Assembly: GCA_963813025.1 (NCBI GenBank)
Contig: CAWEXO010000011.1
Location: 736,001 to 800,000 of the forward strand
DNA length: 64,000 bases
Reading direction: 5' to 3'
Source: an uncultured Verrucomicrobiae bacterium
Lineage (GTDB): Bacteria; Verrucomicrobiota; Verrucomicrobiia; Chthoniobacterales; JAFAMB01
The notes under the pieces are model-generated. The model saw nothing but the letters and a program-made list of their open reading frames with translations, had not been told where the DNA came from and made no database searches. The translations under genes were made by a program, and so were the position numbers. Positions within the stretch are counted from its first letter, which is position 1; each line of letters opens with the position of its first letter. Below are positions 12,903-24,765 of this stretch, piece by piece.

Positions 12903-14007
12903 GTGAGAGAATCCAAACGAAGGGACGACCGCGATCGTTGTTGGCTGGCGTTGCTGCTGGCAGGGACAGTAGCCCTGATAGCCGGTTGTCAGCGAGAAAA
13001 CAAAGTCAGCGCTCCCGAGGTGCGTCCGGTCCGAACCATCGTCGCGGAGAAAGGGAATGCCGGCGAGACGCTCACTTTGACCGGGCATATCGAGGCCGAG
13101 AACGAGGCGACACTTGGCTTTCGGATCGGGGGACGAGTGATCGAGCGCAATGTCAATGTAGGCGATCGGGTGGAACCCGGGCAGGTTCTGGCCAAGCTGG
13201 ATCCCACCACCGAGCTGAGCGCGTTACAGTCGGCGGAGGCGGGCCTTGCGGCTGCGCGCGCTTCCCTGACCCAGGCGCGGAACAACTTCGATCGGCAGCG
13301 ACAGCTTTTTCAACGAGGCATCATCAGCCGCGCCGAACAGGATCGGGCGCAAGAGGCTCTGGATGTTAGCTCAGGCTCAAGTTGAAAATGCTCTCGGCCA
13401 GCTCGCCATTTCCCAGGAACGGGTCGGCTTTACTGAATTGAAAGCCGATGCACCCGGCACGGTTACGGCTCGGGGAGCGGAACCGGGAGAAGTCGTTCAG
13501 GCGGGGCAAATGATCGTCCGAATCGCTCGCCAGGAGGGGCGCGATGCGGTGTTTGATGTGCCGGCCCAAGTCCTGCGTTCCGTGCCGAACAACGCGGAGA
13601 TTAACGTGCGACTGGTCGAGGATCCCAAAGTGATGGCCCAAGGGCGGGTGCGCGAGGTGGGTGAACAAGCCGATCCGGTTACGAGAACGTTTCAGGTCAA
13701 AATCGGGCTAATCAATCCGCCGCCCGAGATGCGTCTGGGCTCGACGGTGAATGGGAGCACGCAACTGGCCTCGGTTCCGGCCGTTGCGCTGCCTGCCTCG
13801 GCGCTTACCCGGCAGGCCGTACGGTCCGCTGTCTGGGTGGTTGATCCTGCAACGCACCTGGTGTCTCTGCGCGACGTCGAGATCGCTAATTTCTTTCCGG
13901 ATACGGTGATCGTCACCAACGGCCTGGAGAATGGTGATATCGTCGTGACGGCAGGAGTCCAGGCACTTCACCCCGGACAAAAGGTTCGCCTCCTCGAATC
14001 AACCTGA
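12903..14007 (+). CDS. RND efflux periplasmic adaptor (frameshift near 13365; start approximate)
   Basis: IAGC lipobox; GFRIGGRVIERNVNVGDRV, ADPVTRTF and GDIVVTAGVQALHPGQKV split over two ORFs. Confidence 0.85.
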
Positions 14008-14013
14008 TCAATA

Positions 14014-17000
14014 ATGAATCTCTCGGACTGGGCGCTTAAGCACCGATCCTTCGTTATCTATCTCATGGCGGCTGCGGTCGTGGCCGGCGTGTTTTCCTAT
14101 CTCCGACTCGGGCGTAGCGAGGACCCGGCGTTTGTTATAAAGACAATGGTCGTCGGCGCCGGCTGGCCGGGCGCCACACTGGACGAGACCCTCCAGCAAG
14201 TCACCGAACGACTTGAGCGCAAACTGCAGGAGACGCCGAATATTGATTTTGTCCGGAGCTTTACTCGCGCTGGACAAACGACCATCTTTGTCAACCTCCA
14301 GCAATCCACCACCGCGAAGGAAGTGCCGGACATCTGGTATCACGTTCGGAAGAGTATTGGGGATATCGAACATACGTTGCCGCCTGGAGTGGTTGGCCCC
14401 TTCTTCGATGACGAGTTCGGAGAGACGTATGGAATCATCTACGGTTTTAACGCGGACGGATTTACCCACCGCGAGGTGCGCGACTACGTCGAAGATATTC
14501 GCTCGCGGCTGTTGCACGTGCCGGATGTCTTGAAAGTCGAAGTTCTCGGGGCGCAAGAGGAGAAAGTTTTCGTTGAATTTTCAGTCCAGCAATTGGCGCG
14601 ACTCGGGATCGATCGAGCCGCGCTCATCTCCGCTTTGCAAGCGCAGAATGCTGTTATTCCCTCCGGCACGATTCAGACCGGGAACGAGAGACTATTGCTG
14701 CGCGTATCTGGCGCATTCGAGTCAGAGGCCAGTCTTTTGGCGGTCAACTTCGTTTCCAATGGGCGGTATGATTCGTTTGCGCGATATCGCGACCGTGCGC
14801 CGGGAGTACTCTGATCCTCCACAGCCGCTCTTTCGGGTAAACGGACAACCGAGCATCGGCCTGGCGATTGCGATGAGGGAGGGCGGCGATATTCTTGCGG
14901 TCGGCAGGAACGTTCGGCATCTGATGCGGGATGTTGAGGCTAATCTTCCCATCGGGATCCAACCCGTTCTGGTTGCCGATCAACCCGAGGTGGTCGACCA
15001 CGCGATCAGTGCTTTCACCGAGTCACTCTGGCAGGCGATAGTTATCATCTTGATTATAAGTTTTATTGCCCTTGGCGTTCGAGCCGGAACGATCATCGCA
15101 CTTTCGATACCGCTGACGCTCGCCCTTGTTTTGCCAGTGATGCAGGTGGCCGAGATCGATCTACAGCGAATCTCGCTGGGCGCGCTGATCATTGCGTTGA
15201 GTCTGCTGGTCGACAACGCGATGACCACCATCGATTCGATAAGCTCCCGTCTGACGGCCGGTGACGCCAAAGAGAAGGCGGCAACCTATGCCTATGACAC
15301 GCTGGCCATCCCGATGCTGACCGGGACGTTCATAACGGCGGCGGCTTTTGTTCCAATCGGTTTCGCGGCTAGCGGCGCCGGTGAGTACACCTTTTCCATT
15401 TTTGCGGTCGTCAGCATCGCTCTCCTTGTCTCCTGGTTTGTTGCCGTCCTGTTTTCGCCGTTGCTCGGGATAGCTCTCCTCAAGAAGCCCAAACCCTCCA
15501 AGTCCGGTAAGCCCAACGTAGTCTTGCGAGTGTTTCGCGGCCTGCTTGTCGGGGCGATGCGGTTTCGCTGGATCACCGTGGCGGTTACCGTTGCCTGTCT
15601 GGTCTTATCTGTCCTGGCGCTGCCGTTGGTGCCAAGGGAATTTTTTCCGGCCTCGGATCGTCCGGAGTTGCTGGTTGATATCAGGCTGCCGCAGAATGCC
15701 TCGATCTACGCGAGCGAGGCGCAGGTGAAGCGGCTGGACGGTCTTTTGAGAGGAGATCCGGATGTTCAGAGCTGGAGCAGTTATGTCGGACGGGGAGCGA
15801 TTCGGTTCTATCTGCCGCTTAACGTGGAGCTGGCGAACGATTTTTTCTCTCAGACCGTAGTGATCGCAAAAAACCTGGCGGGGCGCGAGCGCTTGCAGAA
15901 AAAGCTTGAGACTGAGCTGGCGGAACAGTTTCCCAGCGCAGTGTCGCGGGTTTCGACTTTGGGTTTGGGACCTCCGGTCGGCTGGCCGGTGCAGTATCGC
16001 GTGAGCGGTCCGGACCTCGGCCAGGTGCGGACGTTTGCTCTGCAACTCGCAGCCGTTATCGCCAAGAACCCGGGGCTCAGGCACGTGAATTTCGACTGGA
16101 TGGAACCGGCGCGCATGCTTCGGATCCGAGTCGACCAGGACCAGGCGCGACTGCTCGGTCTCAGCTCGCAAGCGATTGGGAGCGCGCTTAACGCCGTCGT
16201 TACCGGAACCCCGGTCACGCAGATACGCGATGGCATCTACCTGATCGATGTGATTGCCCGGGCGAACGATGAGCAGCGAGTTTCGCTCGCGACACTCAGC
16301 AATTTGCAGGTGCCCGTGCCGGGTGGACGCACCGTTCCCTTGAGTCAGTTTGCCAGGTTCGATTTCGCCCAGGAATACCCGTTGGTTTGGCGCCGCGACC
16401 GAGTCCCAACCCTGACGGTGCAGGCTGACTCCGTGCCTGGTGGACTGCCCGAGACCGCGGTGTCAGCTCTTGCCCCCGAGGTCGATAAACTGAACGCAAG
16501 TCTGCCGCCGCCTTACCGGATCGAGACTGGGGGGGTAGTGGAGGAGAGCGCGAAATCCCAGGCTTCTGTTGCCGCTGTGGTTCCGGTAACCTTGTTGTTG
16601 ATTATCACCTTGCTCATGATGCAATTGCACAGCTTCAATCGCATGCTCCTGGTGCTGGCGGTTGTCCCAATGGCGTTTATCGGCGTGGTTGGCGCCTTGC
16701 TCATCTTCCAAAAGCCGCTTGGCTTTGTTGCTATTCTGGGCATTCTGGCCCTCATCGGAATGGTTGCTCGCAATGCAGTTATTCTTATCGAGGAGGTCGA
16801 GGCGCAGCGCAGAGTTGGGGTGGACGCTTGGAATGCGGTCATCCAAGCATCTTTATCTCGCTTTCGTCCTATTGTGCTCACCGCTATATCGACGGTTTTG
16901 GGAATGATTCCGATTGCCGTTACCATCTTCTGGGGTCCGATGGCGTTTGCGATTATGGGCGGTTTGCTGGTAGGTACGATCCTCACCTTGATTTTTCTGC

Positions 17001-17080
17001 CCGCGCTGTACGTCGCCTGGTTCCGGGTCAAAGAACCTCGTACGCGTGAAGGAGTCCTGGCGCCGGCAACCGGAACCTGA
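14014..17080 (+). CDS. RND efflux permease, AcrB family (frameshift near 14765)
   Basis: MNLSDWAL...LGRSEDP, LLVDNAM and SRFRPIVLTA motifs over two ORFs. Confidence 0.9.
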
Positions 17081-17094
17081 ACGGTTCGTGCCCT

Positions 17095-17176
17095 GGAGCA
17101 GCAGAACTCTCTGGCGTAGCCGGAGCGACCGCCTGCATCACTCCCAAATCCCTGAGGATTTGCAAGCGGCGCAGGC
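17095..17176. repeat. REP-like family A, copy 2
   Basis: GCAGCAGAACTCTCTGGCGTAGCCGGAG plus GCCTGCATCACTCCCAAATCC...GGATTTGCAAGCGGCGCAGGC. Confidence 0.7.
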
Positions 17177-17178
17177 TT

Positions 17179-18416
17179 ATGTTCAAAACATTTTTTGCTG
17201 GCGCTATGATCAACAACATTCAGGTACCCGGGTTTCTCACCGCGACAATTGCCATCATTGTGTTTTTCGTGGGTGTCGGCCTCAATCACGCGATCGCGCC
17301 GCTCCGGCGCTGGAACATTCCGGAAGCGGTGACCGGCGGCCTGCTTGCGGCGATCGTGACCCTGATCGCATACCGGTTTTTGGGTGTAGCGATTACGTTC
17401 GATCTTGGTGCCCGTGATTTGCTGTTACTCTATTTCTTTACCGGCATCGGCCTCAACGCTCGAGCTCAGCGATCTCCTTACCGGAGGACGTCCCTTTCTC
17501 GTTCTGCTGACCCTCACGGTCGTCTTCCTGATACTGCAGAACCTGATCGCAGCCGGCAGTGTTGCCGCGCTCGGTCTTCCGAAAGGGATCACTGTGCTAC
17601 TGGGTTCTGCCTCGTTGATTGGCGGACACGGCACCACCATCGCTTGGGCGCCCCTCATCCAGCAACGTTTCGGATTGGTGAACGCCATGGAGGTCGGGGT
17701 AGCCGCGGCGACGCTTGGGTTGGTAATCGCCAGCGTCGTAGGCGGGCCGGTCGCGGGGTTTCTGATCTTACGTCATGGGCTCAGAGGACCGATCGACGAG
17801 TCGCCGGTGGTCGGACTGCCGGACGTTCCCGATGCACCAGGGAATGACGACCTGAACCATATCAGCCTCCTGCGGACATTTCTGGTTCTCAACGTGGCGA
17901 TACTCCTTGGTTTCGTCGTCGATGAAGTTGTGGCGCAGCACTGGTATAAAGCTGCCTCTCTTCGTCGCTTGCATGATCGTGGCGATTATCCTCACCAATA
18001 CCATTCCGCGCTTGTTACCGCGTCTGCGCTGGCCTTCACGGAGCCCGGATCTGGCGCTCATCTCCGATCTTTCCCTGAACATTTTCCTGGCCATGTCGTT
18101 GATGAGCCTGCAGCTGTGGACGCTTGGTGGACTTGGCCCAGCGCTTGTGGTGGTCCTGGCCATCCAGACGGTAGCCACGGTCGCCTACATTGTGTTTGTC
18201 GTTTTCCCGGCAATGGGTCGCGATTACCTGGCAGCGGTGATTGCCGCCGGGTTCAGCGGCATCAGCCTCGGCGCGACACCGACCGCCATCGCCAACATGA
18301 CGGCGGTCAAGAAGGTCTATGGCGCGGCTCCGACAGCGTTCATCATCCTTCCCCTGGTGTCCGCCTTCTTCATCGACCTCGTCAATGCCTTGGTCATCGG
18401 CTTCTTCGTGCGCTGA
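17179..18416 (+). CDS. gltS: Sodium/glutamate symporter (two apparent frameshifts)
   Basis: NIPEAVTGG, GGHGT, AAATLGL and GATPTAIANM motifs over three ORFs. Confidence 0.85.
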
Positions 18417-18424
18417 CCGATGAA

Positions 18425-18586
18425 CGTCTTGGAGTGCGCGCGAACTTGTCGCCGCTTTAGGACCGCGCGGAGCGCGGCTTAGGCCGAGGACGGAACAGCA
18501 AAGCGCCGGTTTCGGGCGAGAAGAGCCCCATACCCGCGCTCCGCGCAGATCTCAAAGCGGCGACAAGTCGCGCGCACTCCAAGACG
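18425..18586. repeat. Long inverted-repeat REP/MITE-like element between convergent genes
   Basis: CGTCTTGGAGTGCGCGCGAACTTGTCGCCGCTTT ... AAAGCGGCGACAAGTCGCGCGCACTCCAAGACG, near-perfect arms of about 33 bp. Confidence 0.85.
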
Positions 18587-18587
18587 C

Positions 18588-19739
18588 TCATCGGCCATTG
18601 GTCATCACCGTGGGCCGTATTCGCAGCATTGTCCGGCCGTAAGATTCCGCGCAAGCGAAGACCGCTTTATACACTTCGCAATAAGGGTCCTTGGCCATCA
18701 TCGTTCCAAGGGCACTGTAGGTTCGCACCGGGCAGCCGCCATGGCAGATCGAAAGATAGCGGCAGGAGAGGCAGTCTTCGTCTTGCACCAAGCGCTTCGG
18801 CCGTTCCACGAAATCTTGCCGCGCCCGGCTCGTTTTCAGCATGCGAGTGAGATCGGGTTCTTGAAAAACGTTGCCGAAAAAATATTCCGGATAGCTGGTA
18901 ACCCAGCAGTCGCACTGGGCAACTGTGCCTTTGGAGTCCACGGAAATAAATTGGTTGGAGCAGTTCTCCTTCCAGATGCAGGGAAGACGCGCCTCTTTAC
19001 CGGTGAAATGATTCATCAACCCGTCAAACGGGCCCGAGGGAAACGCCCTTCCCGTAGCCTCGCGCTATCCAGATATCGAAGAGCCCGACTAAAAAGGCGG
19101 CCAACTCGAGCATATCGAGCTTGAAATCGTCCTCGATTTGTTTTGCCGGACCACCGGGAAACGGGGTATTGACCTGGAAATCCGTCAGACCGAGTTCCTC
19201 GGTGTAATAACGGTAAAATTTTTCCGGACCTGCCTTCAGAGTGGCTTGGTGAAGCACGGCGATCACCCCGATCTCGATCCCGGCCGCTTTGGCCTCATGC
19301 AGCCTTTGTGTCCAGAGCTTGGTGTAGGCCTCCGCGCCGCCTCGGAAAAGCTTGCGATGAACATTGGGATAATCCATCGATGTTCCGAGTGAGCCGTTAA
19401 ACATCCCGTGGATCACGTCATTCCACGCGGGCGAGTAACTGATCAGATTCGTTTGCAGATAGTGAGAAAAGCGCCGTCCTCGCTTCGCGGCGGCGGAGTC
19501 CATAACCTCTCCCGCATGCGCGAACCAGTCGGGTCCCATGATCATCGCCTCGCCGCCCTGCCAGTAAATTTCGCACTCCTCGATGCGCTCTTTCTCCAAA
19601 TGGTCCAGCAAGCGCTTAGTCAACAGAGGGAACAGGCGGGTGACAGACGATGCGGCTCTTTGTGCTCAAAGCAGTAATCGCAAGCGACGTTGCATTCCGA
19701 CGTCGGAAGAAGAATGACGCTGAAAACTCGACCACTCAC
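18588..19739 (-). CDS. Radical SAM/SPASM-domain enzyme, putative peptide maturase (about two frameshifts)
   Basis: Manual translation from GTG 19739: MSGRVFSVILLPTSECNVACDYCFEH (CxxxCxxC). Then YWQGGEA, LQTNL and the SPASM region CIWKENC...AQCDC...CLSCRYLSICHGGC...DPYC. Confidence 0.9.
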
Positions 19740-20635
19740 TGTGTATTTTGCCCCGCCCAGGTCGGGTTAGCTGGTTTGTCGAGGCGCAACCGGCCAGGTC
19801 TTCGACCGATCTCGTTTGCCGCCGCTTGAATGTCGGAAAAGAGCTCTTTTACTCCTTCACAGGAGTAAGCTGGATCCGGCCATTTGAAATAGCCGCGGCA
19901 TGGCTGTTGCCAGGGACAGGCCGCGCATTCAGCGTCCCTGTGCAAGGAGGCTGCTCAAGATGACTCTCGACAAATTCCGCGGGAGCGCCTCCGATTGGTC
20001 CGAACCGAGCCGGAGCGGGGCAACTTGGCCTGTCCATCGATATCGTACTGGAGAAAGAACGGCTGGATCTTCCTCGAGGATCATCCAGAGCGAGCCGGCG
20101 TCAGCGCCACGTAGGCGGTCGCGAGCAGCGAGTGGAAGAACTCCACCGGCGCCTCGACCGCCGGTTCATAAAGATAGAAGTCAGAGCTTCTTTGAGTTCG
20201 GTTAGGGTCGTCGGCGTATGGTTGACCCGGCAATATCCTCGGACTGGAAACCGCAAGGCTCCAGCGAGTTTGACCGCCTTGAGCAAACCGCGTCCAGCCG
20301 GGATGGTCACGCGGACGTCGTGGACTGCGCAGGCATCAACCAATCGGTAGAGGTCCGAAAACTCCGAAGCCGGGTCGGCCAGAACGATGTCAATGGAACG
20401 TCGGAGTCGCTGTGCGCCACCTCCGTCCAGGCATCCGAATCGCCCGACATCCCTTCGACCTGGAGCCACTCCAAACCGGGGAGCGGATCGCCGAGCCATC
20501 GGCAGAGTTCCTCTCGATTCCGGACAATGGCGACGAAGGGCAGATCACCTTGCGTTCTCCGCCAGAGCAGACGGCAAGATCTGAGAGGACGATGATGATC
20601 TTCCTCGGGCACGCAAATTCCAGAGGCTCACTCAC
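19736..20635 (-). CDS. Hypothetical maturase partner with a degenerate SPASM-like tail (multiple frameshifts)
   Basis: Stitched frames give DLPFVAIVRNREELCRWL...DIVLADPASEFSDLYRL...PVEFFHSLL...LWMILEEDPA...CAACPWQQPCRGYF...YSCEG. GTGA overlaps at both ends; no CxxxCxxC seen. Confidence 0.6.
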
Positions 20636-20926
20636 CACCGATTGAGCCAGCTGCCCGCGACGTCGGCCACCCCAGCGGTTGATCCACCTACCCCGACGCC
20701 GAGGACCCCAGCGGTTGATCCATCCGCCGCGGCGAGGACCCCAGCGGTTGATCCAAACTCTGCGCATTGGCCTTCGGCGCGGAGGCAAGCCAAGCACGCC
20801 AGCCAGCCCGATCGCCGCAATCGCGGCCCCAGACCATTTTCCCATGCTCCGGAGAAATAGCCGCCTGTTCAGCGACTCTTTTTCGCTGTCGGAGCCTTCC
20901 GTTTCAGAAGAGGGTTGATTATTCAT
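20632..20926 (-). CDS. Putative RiPP precursor with a Tat-like leader and four W[IL]NRW repeats
   Basis: LNRRLFLRSMGKWSGAAIAAIGLAG, then WINRWGPRRGG-WINRWGPRRRGR-WINRWGGRRR and, after a 1-nt shift, GSWLNRW-stop. Confidence 0.75.
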
Positions 20927-20946
20927 AACATTAAAGGGCGAGGTTC

Positions 20947-21454
20947 TTATTCTTCATCTTCAGTTCGGCGCCAGAATCGAAAAGTGCATGGCGGCGATAA
21001 GCCACTTTCCATTCTCTTTCGTGGCCGTAACCGACAGATTGAGCGGGAAGGTGAAATCTGTTTCCGTCCTTCTTTCCACTGACGTTGCCTGACGTCATCA
21101 TCCAACCCATGTCCGATCGCGAGTGCGCCGACGCTCGAACTCGTATTCGAAATTTTGTTCTCCAACGTCGAAGCCTTCAAAGAGATGTTCGATGGGCCGC
21201 TTTGAGTTCATCCGGACCCGACCAGATTTCCCCGGGACCGGTGCCCATCATGGCCGCTTTCTGGGAAAGGACAGCCATCACTCCATCCAGGTCGTGGTTT
21301 GTAAAAGCCGCGTCGTGCGCGTCGAGCAGAGCGCGAAGCGGCGCTAACTCGGGATTCTCCGGTTCTGCGTAGGCGTCTGCGCACTCGCAGCGCGAAGGGA
21401 CTGCGGCGGCGCGCTGCTTGCTGCGGCCACTGTAGTAGCTGCTGTTCGGTTCAT
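20947..21454 (-). CDS. NTF2/SnoaL-like protein (frameshifted; ends approximate)
   Basis: LRALLDAHDAAFTNHDLDGVMA...MMGTGPGEIWSG and, in another frame, TATKENGKWLIAAMHFS. Confidence 0.65.
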
Positions 21455-21644
21455 AAGCATTGTACACTTGTAAGCGAAGGTAATCGCTCAACAAGAGCAA
21501 ACTGAGTTCTCGCGAGGTTCTGTTTTGAGCGGCCGTTCGCTCCCGGAGGTCATTTGAGAGGGCTGGATACTGGAATTGCCTCGCAATGGCGTCAAGGGCG
21601 CTTGCGGTGTCTGAATCGCGGCTAAGGACGTCGAGAATCTTATT

Positions 21645-22552
21645 TTAAGCGAATTTCCGTCCAGTGAGTTGCTCTAATACTCGCAGCGGCGAGCTCGTCT
21701 CATTGCGCAATTGTGCGACCGGAACAAGAAAGGTTTGTTCTAGCTGATACTGGCCGCGCATCGCGGCATGCGAAACCTGGTCAGTAAAGGCAAGCCAGGT
21801 GGAGCCAGCCGGAAAGTCCAGCTCGAATCTGTTCTACCTCGGTCTGGTAGCGATCATCCATCTTCATCCGGTTATGAAGTTCGAGCATGAGATGGTCATA
21901 TGAGTGTCCGCCGGCTTTTCGTGACGTGAAGGAGCCTCAGCATACTGCTGCTTCCAAAAACCGGCCGCCTGATCGAAGAAAAAAAACGCGCAGCCATCTG
22001 TTCGAAAGGTTCGCCAACCCGCCAAACGCGTCCTCGGCCAGAGGGATTGACGTTCGTAAAGACTCGTAAAATTCGTTTTCCGTGGGTGGGTGCGGATGGG
22101 AAACTATCGACATGCAAGCGGGTGTCATCCTTTCGCCACGACGTGGCGCGACCCTCAATCTGGATCGGACGGAAACTCGTCCGTGCCCGGATCAATCCAC
22201 TTTCATAGGGAGAAGCCAAGCGCAGGACGAGATCGCGGGCGAAATCGGCAAAACGCGCAATCATCTTGCGAAGAAGTTCGGCATTCGGCGCCGAGGCGGC
22301 TGTCCCGCGGAGCGTCCGACTGCGCGGATCGTAGCTCACGTTCTTGGCCTTGCCGACGATCGCCGGAGAGAAGAGGGCGCTTTCTTCATCCGTCACGGCA
22401 AATCGGTACTGCGGGAGAAAGAGGATCTTCCCGCTCTCTAAAGCGCTGATCGCGCGGTCGACCAGACCAGCAGGAGCAGACGAATCTTGCGGCTCAATTT
22501 CGATGAGCTCAAGAGGGCTCATGCTCAGCCTCGCGGAATCCGTCGCCTTCAT
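21645..22552 (-). CDS. kdoO: Kdo hydroxylase family dioxygenase (frameshifted near the 3' third)
   Basis: SWRKDDTRLHVDSFPS...RILRVFTNVNP; continues in other frames as YDHLMLELH...FTDQVSHAAMRGQYQLEQTF to TAA at 21645. Confidence 0.8.
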
Positions 22553-23691: not shown

Positions 23692-24177
23692 GTGAAACAG
23701 AACGCACGCTTTGTTCGGATCGCCCTCCCGCTCAAGTTGATCGCTTTGGCTTGTGGATTGTCAGCCTGCGCCGGCACCGGACGAGTGGACGAACGCGACC
23801 GCGCAATCGACACTTACGTAGTAGATGCAAACGTCACGGGTCTTGCCGAAGCGCGTGCTCGCCGCTACTGGATGGAAAATTCGAACAGGTTTCCGCCAAC
23901 GCCCTACCTTGCGGTTGATGCGACTTTAGTGTTCCCCAGCGAAGTCCAGAATTTGTGGCCTAAGCTCATCAACTCAGAAACTACGGCCAGTTTTTTTGGT
24001 CATGGGCTGGAGTCCGGCTCCTACTCAGAGCTGCAACTTTATTGCGTGCTGATCTTTGATACTCGAACCAGACAGCTAGTAGGTAACCGGGGCTACCTCG
24101 TCGTCGACCTGCCTTCACGCGGAAGCGTGGCTCGGTTTGGTCCTTACCTAGCCAGATATATTAGTGCGGGCAGGTAA
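23692..24177 (+). CDS. Hypothetical lipoprotein, paralog 1
   Basis: LSAC lipobox; strong similarity to the next ORF. Confidence 0.75.
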   Translation: MKQNARFVRIALPLKLIALACGLSACAGTGRVDERDRAIDTYVVDANVTGLAEARARRYWMENSNRFPPTPYLAVDATLVFPSEVQNLWPKLINSETTASFFGHGLESGSYSELQLYCVLIFDTRTRQLVGNRGYLVVDLPSRGSVARFGPYLARYISAGR

Positions 24178-24267: not shown

Positions 24268-24765
24268 GTGAATGTGAATTTTTTCAGGGTCATTTTGTTC
24301 CATCGAGCATGGCCAATTGTTGTGATGGCAACGATGGCCGCCTGTGCGGAACACGCTTACTCGCGAATCGACAACCGCGACTACGCGATCGACACCTATA
24401 TCCCGAAGCCGAACGTGGTGGCTGTCAGCGAAGCACGCGTCCGCCAATTTTGGGCGCGCAACGCGGCCAGATTCGGAGGGCAGCCTCCGTACCTGGCGGT
24501 TGACGCAACGTATGTTTTTCCGAGTGAAATCGTCCAGGATCTGTGGCCAAAGCTGATCAACTCCGAAACGACCAGCAGCTTTTTTGGGCATGGCCGGGAA
24601 CAGGGATCCTATCAAGGCCTGGATATGTATTGCGTAATGATCTTCGATACGCGAACCAACCGCTTTGTTAGTGATCAGGGTTTCGTTGCGGTCAATTTAC
24701 CGACTCGAGGAACCATCGCGAGATTTGGCCCTTATTTAGCCCGGTTCATCGGTACCGGACGGTGA
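24268..24765 (+). CDS. Hypothetical lipoprotein, paralog 2
   Basis: MAAC lipobox; shares AIDTY, YLAVDAT, LWPKLINSETT, FDTRT and ARFGPYLAR with paralog 1. Confidence 0.75.
   Translation: MNVNFFRVILFHRAWPIVVMATMAACAEHAYSRIDNRDYAIDTYIPKPNVVAVSEARVRQFWARNAARFGGQPPYLAVDATYVFPSEIVQDLWPKLINSETTSSFFGHGREQGSYQGLDMYCVMIFDTRTNRFVSDQGFVAVNLPTRGTIARFGPYLARFIGTGR

Follow-up and report, generated by a model that had tools for sequence, protein, structure and literature searches.

The window analysed here is a 64,000-nucleotide stretch of the genome of an uncultured Verrucomicrobiae bacterium (assembly GCA_963813025.1, contig CAWEXO010000011.1, positions 736,001 to 800,000), and its subject is a short minus-strand gene encoding Trp-Ile-Asn-Arg-Trp repeats behind an N-terminal twin-arginine motif. 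On balance we favour the view that this locus encodes the precursor of an exported repeat peptide modified by a radical S-adenosylmethionine (SAM) enzyme, that it forms part of a four-gene cassette and that the copy in the window has been garbled by assembly. The architecture of the precursor recurs in 37 of 38 related loci and in hundreds of metagenomic clusters. Pathways for RiPPs (peptides made by the ribosome and modified after translation) usually come with a protease and an exporter of their own; in this case a radical-SAM-modified peptide of a large unnamed family appears to be handed to the general export and signal-peptidase machinery.

The precursor gene and its reading frame

The gene starts at an ATG at 20926 on the minus strand, and the uninterrupted frame from there is a run-through open reading frame (ORF) of 178 amino acids (aa), 20926-20390. 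An acidic n-region of 19 residues precedes N-R-R-L-F-L, and a hydrophobic stretch opening with AAIAAIGLAG and then the repeats follow. An earlier reading of the window from its letters (the sequence-only reading) had listed these same elements, and all of them are present at the coordinates we verified. The repeats exceed chance. An 18-base unit encoding WINRWG, which that reading had also placed correctly, is exact at 20669, 20705 and 20738, against a chance expectation of 0.04 (100 shuffles, none of which reached three copies), and TRF finds an array with a period of 33 (2.5 copies) at 20669-20755. No fourth copy of the unit was found with up to three mismatches allowed. The units in 20669-20755 are identical over 18 bases, whereas those of the same-genus gene (L009:6960-7060) differ at synonymous sites; the identity could reflect concerted evolution of the repeats or their collapse during assembly.

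Comparison with relatives restores the frame. A search of related genomes (n=41) recovered precursors built like that of the window, in open frames about 100-130 aa long. The intact same-genus homologue, of 96 aa, shares 82% identity with the window precursor. Its gene, 91% identical in DNA, reveals three insertions in the window that coincide exactly with the frame changes: +2 near 20794, +1 near 20759 and +1 near 20652. The first two add up to three bases, and the reading is garbled for about 37 bases before the frame comes right again. The last insertion throws the final repeat and the stop out of frame, and GSWLNRW is found at 20655-20635 in the third frame with a TGA stop at 20634-20632. 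The ten homologues aligned with the window read A-W-L-A-x-A-P-x-A-x-A ahead of the first repeat, and all ten end in W-x-N-x-W with a stop directly after (alignment A2); in a wider set nearly all, where aligned, close with W-x-N-x-(W/R/Y) and a stop. The window differs from the ten at exactly two places, the pre-core stretch and the C-terminal end. This agrees with the sequence-only reading, which had supposed two compensating indels before the core and a break before a fourth W-L-N-R-W and stop: the A-x-A stretch and the terminal repeat with its stop are both there in intact relatives. Within the taxonomic family of the window the gene was found in 23 of 43 genomes (E<=1e-6), with 35 matches, four of them partial; the open frames of the other full-length ones span 99-138 aa, and that of the window 187. 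The 178-aa ORF, which has no family match and exceeds these frames, was rejected as a real protein. The annotated 178-aa ORF is thus not the gene product in this record.

A profile built from ten intact precursors matched 1681 clusters at 90% identity (E<=0.001) among 8000 candidates scored. Among the best 120 of these, nearly all named clusters are called 'hypothetical protein' and none carries a Pfam domain. An exhaustive search of 50%-identity representatives gave 216 at E<=0.001, 99 of them at E<=1e-10. By sequence, then, the precursor is a member of a large unnamed family. We recovered 38 loci from species-representative genomes, whose record titles assign nearly all hosts to Verrucomicrobiae, Chthoniobacterales, Candidatus Udaeobacter or Terrimicrobiaceae metagenome-assembled genomes (MAGs); the remaining hosts are a Prosthecobacter MAG, a Verrucomicrobium isolate, one Burkholderiales MAG and one Dormiibacterota MAG. 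In a phylum-wide sample none of 400 other genomes matched at E<=1e-6, the draw lying outside the taxonomic family of the window and 12 candidates being scored in genomes with more.

Table 1. Features of the cassette in the window (positions counted from the first letter of the window).
Feature	Positions	Strand	Remarks
Gene for exported SnoaL_3/DUF4440 (NTF2-like) protein	20960..21502	-	upstream of the precursor; ORF pieces 21500-21177 and 21079-20960
Precursor peptide gene	20632..20926	-	broken by three insertions; about 96 codons in relatives
Twin-arginine motif N-R-R-L-F-L	20852..20869	-	after the acidic n-region of 19 residues
AAIAAIGLAG, start of Gly/Ala-rich hydrophobic region	20798..20827	-	preceded by invariant G-K-W-S
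AWLASAPKANAQS	20757..20795	-	neighbouring frame only; end of h-region, Pro, A-x-A site of signal-peptidase type
Core, three W-I-N-R-W repeats with Arg/Gly spacers	20654..20758	-	includes the 18-base unit, three exact copies
Fourth repeat G-S-W-L-N-R-W and TGA stop	20632..20655	-	third frame only, after the +1 insertion near 20652
Gene for ~285-aa protein, putative radical SAM/SPASM paralogue	19765..20631	-	at least three frame pieces, bounds approximate; no Pfam/NCBIfam family, no CX3CX2C
Gene for putative radical SAM/SPASM peptide maturase	18588..19739	-	ORFs 19739-19620, 19623-19024 and 19019-18588; two single-base indels

A four-gene cassette without a dedicated exporter

The four genes keep a fixed order: SnoaL-like protein, precursor, 285-aa protein and radical SAM/SPASM enzyme. 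A SnoaL_3/DUF4440 protein with an N-terminal signal is encoded upstream of the precursor in 35 of the 38 loci; the gene for the 285-aa protein lies downstream in 27 and is followed by the radical SAM/SPASM gene in 25, the contig ending inside the 285-aa gene in 2 more. Eight precursor loci (L025, L034, L036, L040, L043, L046, L047 and L048) have no radical SAM genes within the at least 4.8 kilobases (kb) downstream. The SnoaL-like gene stands upstream in seven of these, L034 being without it, and in three of the eight the genome also has a full cassette among the 38 loci. This distribution suggests that one enzyme pair may serve several precursors through the conserved leader, and the steady pairing with the SnoaL-like gene suggests a periplasmic partnership, whether of binding, tailoring or protection.

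No ABC exporter and no C39-type protease was found among 89 flanking ORFs, and nothing else recurs there beyond a few loci. Onward export by a neighbouring RND pump was considered and set aside: an AcrB-family ORF occurs in the flanks of one of 37 loci (L019), with a weak HlyD match in another (L044). Separately, a gene for an MFS_3 ('transmembrane secretion effector') transporter adjoins the cassette in three of 37 loci (L026, L030 and L031), too few for a link. Between 18400 and 21800 there are no promoter-like sites; two terminator-like sites lie inside the radical SAM gene, fewer than in shuffles. The sequence-only reading had pictured modification in the cytoplasm followed by Tat export, with the leader taken off by signal peptidase I. 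The context supports this picture: the cassette has neither protease nor ABC exporter, a putative maturase gene lies downstream, an A-x-A site precedes the core of the precursor, and the genome encodes the twin-arginine translocation (Tat) components TatC (191.4 bits) and TatA (67.1 bits).

Several points weigh against our proposal. Modification, export and cleavage are predictions from sequence for every member of the family. The radical SAM enzyme falls under the cut-off of every curated family, named triceptide synthase families included. The frameshifting indels of the window are concentrated over the cassette, mostly as insertions outside homopolymers. As to the route of export, models of Tat signals stay under their cut-offs (TIGR01409 at best 7.6 against 16.7, PF10518 7.2 against 22.7, TIGR02811 15.5 against 48.45), which counts as weak negative evidence in that the TIGR01409 and PF10518 models are short and HMMER filters drop weak matches; the c-region carries no basic residue in the commonest pre-core sites tallied (e.g. 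EANAGA); and the conservation of the two arginines could serve recognition by the enzyme instead. Bufferins, which are RiPPs modified in the cytoplasm, use a general secretion (Sec) signal (PMC11626156), and Sec export is therefore a live alternative here.

Export signal and route

The pattern RRxF[LIVM] occurs in 119 of the best 120 clusters at 90% identity. Among 138 anchored 50%-identity representatives, that is those with the downstream K-W-S anchor, the paired arginines are found in 126 (KR in 3), F in 123 and L in 133, with 18 different residues at x. RRLFL is invariant in both of our smaller alignments (A1 and A2), and the family-wide pattern is R-R-x-F-L with x variable. Conservation of these positions with a free x mirrors the Tat consensus S/T-R-R-x-F-L-K (PMC3383694). 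The sequence-only reading had named this conservation beforehand as one of two points on which it would stand or fall, and in homologous precursors it holds. Further downstream, the pre-core site is of A-x-A type, for example E-A-N-A↓G-A.

It is an unlikely explanation, though one with a real share of probability, that the N-terminal region is a signal of Sec type (or an anchor that is not cleaved) and that the conservation of the leader, arginines included, reflects recognition by the maturase pair instead of the Tat translocase. This explanation draws on the Tat-signal scores and on the acidic or neutral c-region of the commonest pre-core sites tallied, on the Sec signals of bufferin precursors (PMC11626156) and on invariant leader residues that lie outside the Tat motif (G-K-W-S, A-A-I-A). 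On the other side, the pattern of conserved and free positions (R, R, x, F, L) matches the Tat consensus across 50%-identity representatives. The signal of the SnoaL-like protein, MNRREA..., tolerates RK in several loci; the precursor has 1 KR against 118 RR in one set and 3 KR against 126 RR in the other. Both TatA and TatC are encoded, and the precursor has a Gly/Ala-rich h-region and a long signal of about 54 residues. Gly/Ala-rich h-regions and long signals are Tat-like features. Judged from these sequence features, Tat would be the route with slightly better than even probability and Sec an appreciably less likely one.

The export signal may have a second role. No part of the precursor is more conserved than the segment from the arginines to the h-region (mean column identity 0.82; core 0.71, c-region 0.61, n-region 0.51). 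Since this segment is the most conserved, and since precursor copies without enzyme genes exist, a function as recognition leader fits. The earlier suggestion that the signal peptide doubles as the RiPP leader is therefore strengthened to the extent of being plausible.

Core repeats and putative maturation enzymes

Tryptophan and asparagine of each W-x-N unit are the sole invariant core residues in the alignment of ten homologues (A2). Among the best 120 clusters, 110 have five such units; of 600 motifs, 589 have I or V at position 2, while R stands at position 4 in 433 and G in 146; position 5 is R in 316, W in 118 and G in 104 (n=580). In distant representatives the x of the retained W-x-N is A, V, I, L or Y, and the number of units per representative runs from 0 to 10. 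By these counts the second Trp is a feature of the Arg-rich subtype that includes the window and not of the family. As position 5 is not conserved, the second Trp cannot join a family-wide crosslink, and the other crosslink patterns that the sequence-only reading had attached to it are not supported. Its likening of the Trp/Arg-rich product to antimicrobial peptides also narrows to one subtype, the family being mostly Gly-rich, although antimicrobial activity is possible for that subtype. The predicted mature peptide of the intact same-genus homologue has 42 residues, among them 13 Arg, 8 Trp, 7 Gly and 4 Asn.

The invariant W and N fit Trp-to-Asn stapling of the triceptide type. In that chemistry XncB joins Trp C6 to Asn C-beta and OscB joins Trp C7 to Asn/Asp C-beta, each giving a three-residue cyclophane (PMC11002830; general background in PMC11499958 and PMC11851443). 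The cores match the GrrA/OscA1 precursor model TIGR04260 with at best 20.6 bits; E<=10 is obtained for 4 of 10 members and 9 of 15 proteins, and none of the precursors scored reaches the cut-off of 31 bits.

The radical SAM enzyme of the cassette keeps its motif cysteines: CX3CX2C (C24, C28, C31) and the SPASM cysteines C262, C268, C284, C286, C331, C334, C340, C344 and C362 are invariant in 13 homologues, and the SPASM model TIGR04085 is matched with 56 bits (cut-off 27). Its highest score among family models is to the sulfatase maturase model TIGR03942 (145 bits, cut-off 349), followed by DynA (137), DarW (124) and DarE (112), with cut-offs of 450-650. Scores against triceptide families are lower, namely GrrM/OscB 74 (cut-off 310), YhhB 64 (445), AmcB 57 (425), FxsB 53 (370) and XyeB 45 (450). 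The nearest solved structures are anSMEcpe (4k36/4k37, E 5e-24) and the triceptide synthase ChlB, the latter being one of three matched.

It is rather unlikely that other chemistry acts on the core, be it an ether or C-N crosslink as in darobactin and dynobactin, an Arg-linked crosslink or epimerisation. DynA, DarW and DarE do outscore GrrM/OscB, YhhB, FxsB and XyeB, and Arg is common at position 4. However, all of these scores are far under their cut-offs, one of the three solved structures found by sequence is a triceptide synthase, and W at position i and N at i+2 are the only invariant core residues, in a motif documented to give Trp-x-Asn C-C cyclophanes (PMC11002830). By analogy the system would work like a triceptide system, while by curated models it is a member of no named family.

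The 285-aa protein matches no Pfam or NCBIfam family. Its AlphaFold model (pLDDT 73.7, and above 90 over the N-terminal part of alternating strands and helices) has as best Foldseek matches ChlB (E 5e-5, TM 0.51-0.54) and anSMEcpe (TM 0.47-0.50). The protein has no CX3CX2C; its only invariant cysteines, C234, C237, C243 and C256, correspond in an hhalign alignment (E 2.6e-4, probability 42%) to the final SPASM cluster motif of the adjacent enzyme. From sequence and model we read it as a catalytically dead radical SAM/SPASM paralogue. A predicted complex of the 285-aa protein with the precursor (score 0.02, mark 0.32) counts neither for nor against binding. At one locus (L051:5090-7288) the 285-aa protein and the radical SAM enzyme form one 732-aa ORF, which may be a natural fusion or may result from an indel where the two genes usually overlap by 4 bases.

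Origin of the frame breaks

We aligned 34.5 kb of the window to the same-genus genome and counted, per kb, indels whose length is not a multiple of three. The three bins of 19001-22000 have 8, 19 and 12; the bin 17001-18000 has 8, mostly intergenic, and the others have 0-6, many of them 0. The hot spot takes in three genes, those for the SnoaL-like protein, the precursor and the 285-aa protein, and also the start of the radical SAM gene. It holds 30 insertions and 9 deletions, most of these indels being single-base insertions outside homopolymers, and the cassette in this record has about 30 frameshifting indels. When the genes are read in the frame of the relative, however, none of the four contains an in-frame stop, and the ratio of non-synonymous to synonymous change (dN/dS) is 0.32 for the SnoaL-like gene, 0.11 for the precursor, 0.17 for the 285-aa gene and 0.05 for the radical SAM gene, against 0.03-0.29 in flanking genes. 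The precursor projected onto the same-genus frame is 89% identical, and nucleotide identity over the cassette is 83.8%, inside the flank range of 80.8-89.5%. By stop-free frames of at least 150 aa in 3-kb windows, a coarse measure, the cassette stands at the 7th-17th percentile of 4379 windows.

The frame breaks are most likely consensus errors of the assembly and not the sequence of the organism. The cassette retains the marks of purifying selection despite about 30 indels, and for this reason we judge local consensus error substantially likelier than a real, very recent inactivation. That the cassette is a recently inactivated pseudogene cluster, with the three insertions and the 178-aa run-through as true sequence, is accordingly rather improbable. 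The sharpness of the indel peak over the cassette and its mostly non-homopolymer character would suit it, as would frameshifted precursor copies in other records (L054, P0167, P0221 and P0257). Yet neutral decay that left 30 indels should also have brought many substitutions, and there is neither a stop nor an excess of amino-acid change, with dN/dS and nucleotide identity like those of the flanks. Bacterial pseudogenes have a deletion bias, and the excess of insertions runs the other way. Housekeeping-type neighbours also contain single-base insertions, and the genome is only 80% complete, in 16 contigs.

Among these neighbours, the sodium/glutamate symporter gene gltS (17179-18460, plus strand) is in three frame pieces where the same-genus copy is intact; relative to intact same-genus copies, an AcrB-family gene (13545-17080, plus strand) has one single-base insertion and a gene for KdoO (Kdo hydroxylase; 21896-22552, minus strand) has two. 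Further along the window lie two adjacent paralogous genes (23692-24177 and 24268-24765, plus strand), conserved in the same-genus genome. Their products, 161 and 165 aa long, both have a hydrophobic segment containing Cys at the N-terminus, and their C-terminal ends are similar, ...ARFGPYLAR[YF]I..GR.

A model for maturation and export

We propose that in the cytoplasm the radical SAM enzyme, probably together with its dead paralogue, would link the ring of Trp to C-beta of the Asn at position i+2. Stapling in each of the four W-x-N units would give three-residue cyclophanes as in triceptides. The N-terminal 50-odd residues would act as both recognition leader and Tat signal, and after export of the stapled peptide, signal peptidase I would cut behind A-x-A to leave in the periplasm a cationic peptide of some 42 residues, which the exported SnoaL-like protein of the cassette would bind or act on there.

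A more speculative extension, which we regard as doubtful, gives the dead paralogue a part in timing: it would hold the Tat signal, in the manner of the chaperones of redox enzymes, until all W-x-N units are stapled, and only then would Tat export the peptide. If true, it would be a first on two counts, as a radical SAM RiPP routed by Tat and as quality-controlled RiPP export, and the rigidified peptide would work alongside the exported NTF2-like protein in the periplasm of soil Verrucomicrobia, which are abundant.

The stapled peptide might instead not be a free natural product and might belong to the exported SnoaL-like protein as a subunit or stable partner, by analogy with quinohemoprotein amine dehydrogenase, which has a crosslinked small subunit; the SnoaL-like gene is the tightest neighbour of the precursor and is kept in seven of the eight loci without radical SAM genes, and both products carry export signals, but a low-complexity core with a variable number of repeats would be unusual for a fixed subunit, and we consider this distinctly unlikely.

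In the literature searched we found neither a precursor with a Tat signal for a radical SAM enzyme nor a cassette of this kind, the primary triceptide surveys, whose networks may include the enzyme, lying outside that search. The general-export design was found there only for RiPPs of MNIO enzymes with Sec or lipoprotein signals, and for none with radical SAM or Tat. One supplement of PMC11499958 has no entry for Verrucomicrobia, Chthoniobacter or Prosthecobacter. The cassette offers a testable system for three matters: (i) how an oxygen-sensitive cytoplasmic maturase is coordinated with export; (ii) what a catalytically dead radical SAM paralogue does; (iii) what part stapled peptides of Trp-x-Asn repeats play in the envelope of soil bacteria that are hard to culture. 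To this the window record adds a garbled copy and evidence that the garbling is probably technical.

Comparison with known systems

One likeness in design is to GrrA/OscA1 and its enzyme GrrM/OscB. In both systems the precursor has repeated aromatic-x-Asn units in a Gly-rich, low-complexity C-terminal half, and a radical SAM/SPASM gene adjoins it. Several cores match the repeat half of the GrrA/OscA1 model (TIGR04260) weakly, running to the end of the model. The differences are that the cut-offs of this model and of TIGR04261, for GrrM/OscB, are unmet here (precursor 20.6 against 31, enzyme 74 against 310), that the leader is an export signal of twin-arginine type with an A-x-A site, and that the cassette adds a putative dead radical SAM paralogue and an exported SnoaL-like protein in hosts that are soil Verrucomicrobia.

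Darobactin and dynobactin precursors have a single short core and a dedicated exporter, in contrast to the repeats found here. Their enzymes DarE, DarW and DynA are radical SAM/SPASM proteins of the same broad clade as the cassette enzyme and crosslink short Trp-containing motifs; an N-terminal stretch of the DarE model, about 70 positions by model coordinates, is missing in the cassette enzyme.

The anaerobic sulfatase maturases (anSME) are radical SAM/SPASM enzymes that act in the cytoplasm on substrates exported afterwards. They provide the best-scoring family model for the cassette enzyme and its closest solved structure. However, the cut-off of that model (TIGR03942) is far above the score, and the substrate here would be a repeat peptide of 96 aa and not an enzyme. 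The sulfatase motif is absent from the cores, in which, on reading them through and not by a count, Ser is rare and Cys is unseen in those of full length.

In the order of events proposed here, the system would resemble the bufferins, whose precursors have a general-secretion signal at the N-terminus, are modified in the cytoplasm, leave by housekeeping export and are cleaved by signal peptidase to give a periplasmic product, a signal-peptide design described as rare among bacterial RiPPs (PMC11626156). Bufferins differ in enzyme class (MNIO plus DUF2063), in chemistry (Cys to thiooxazole) and in having a Sec signal, and the main text of that paper nowhere mentions Tat; the cassette described here would pair the same design with a radical SAM enzyme and a twin-arginine signal.

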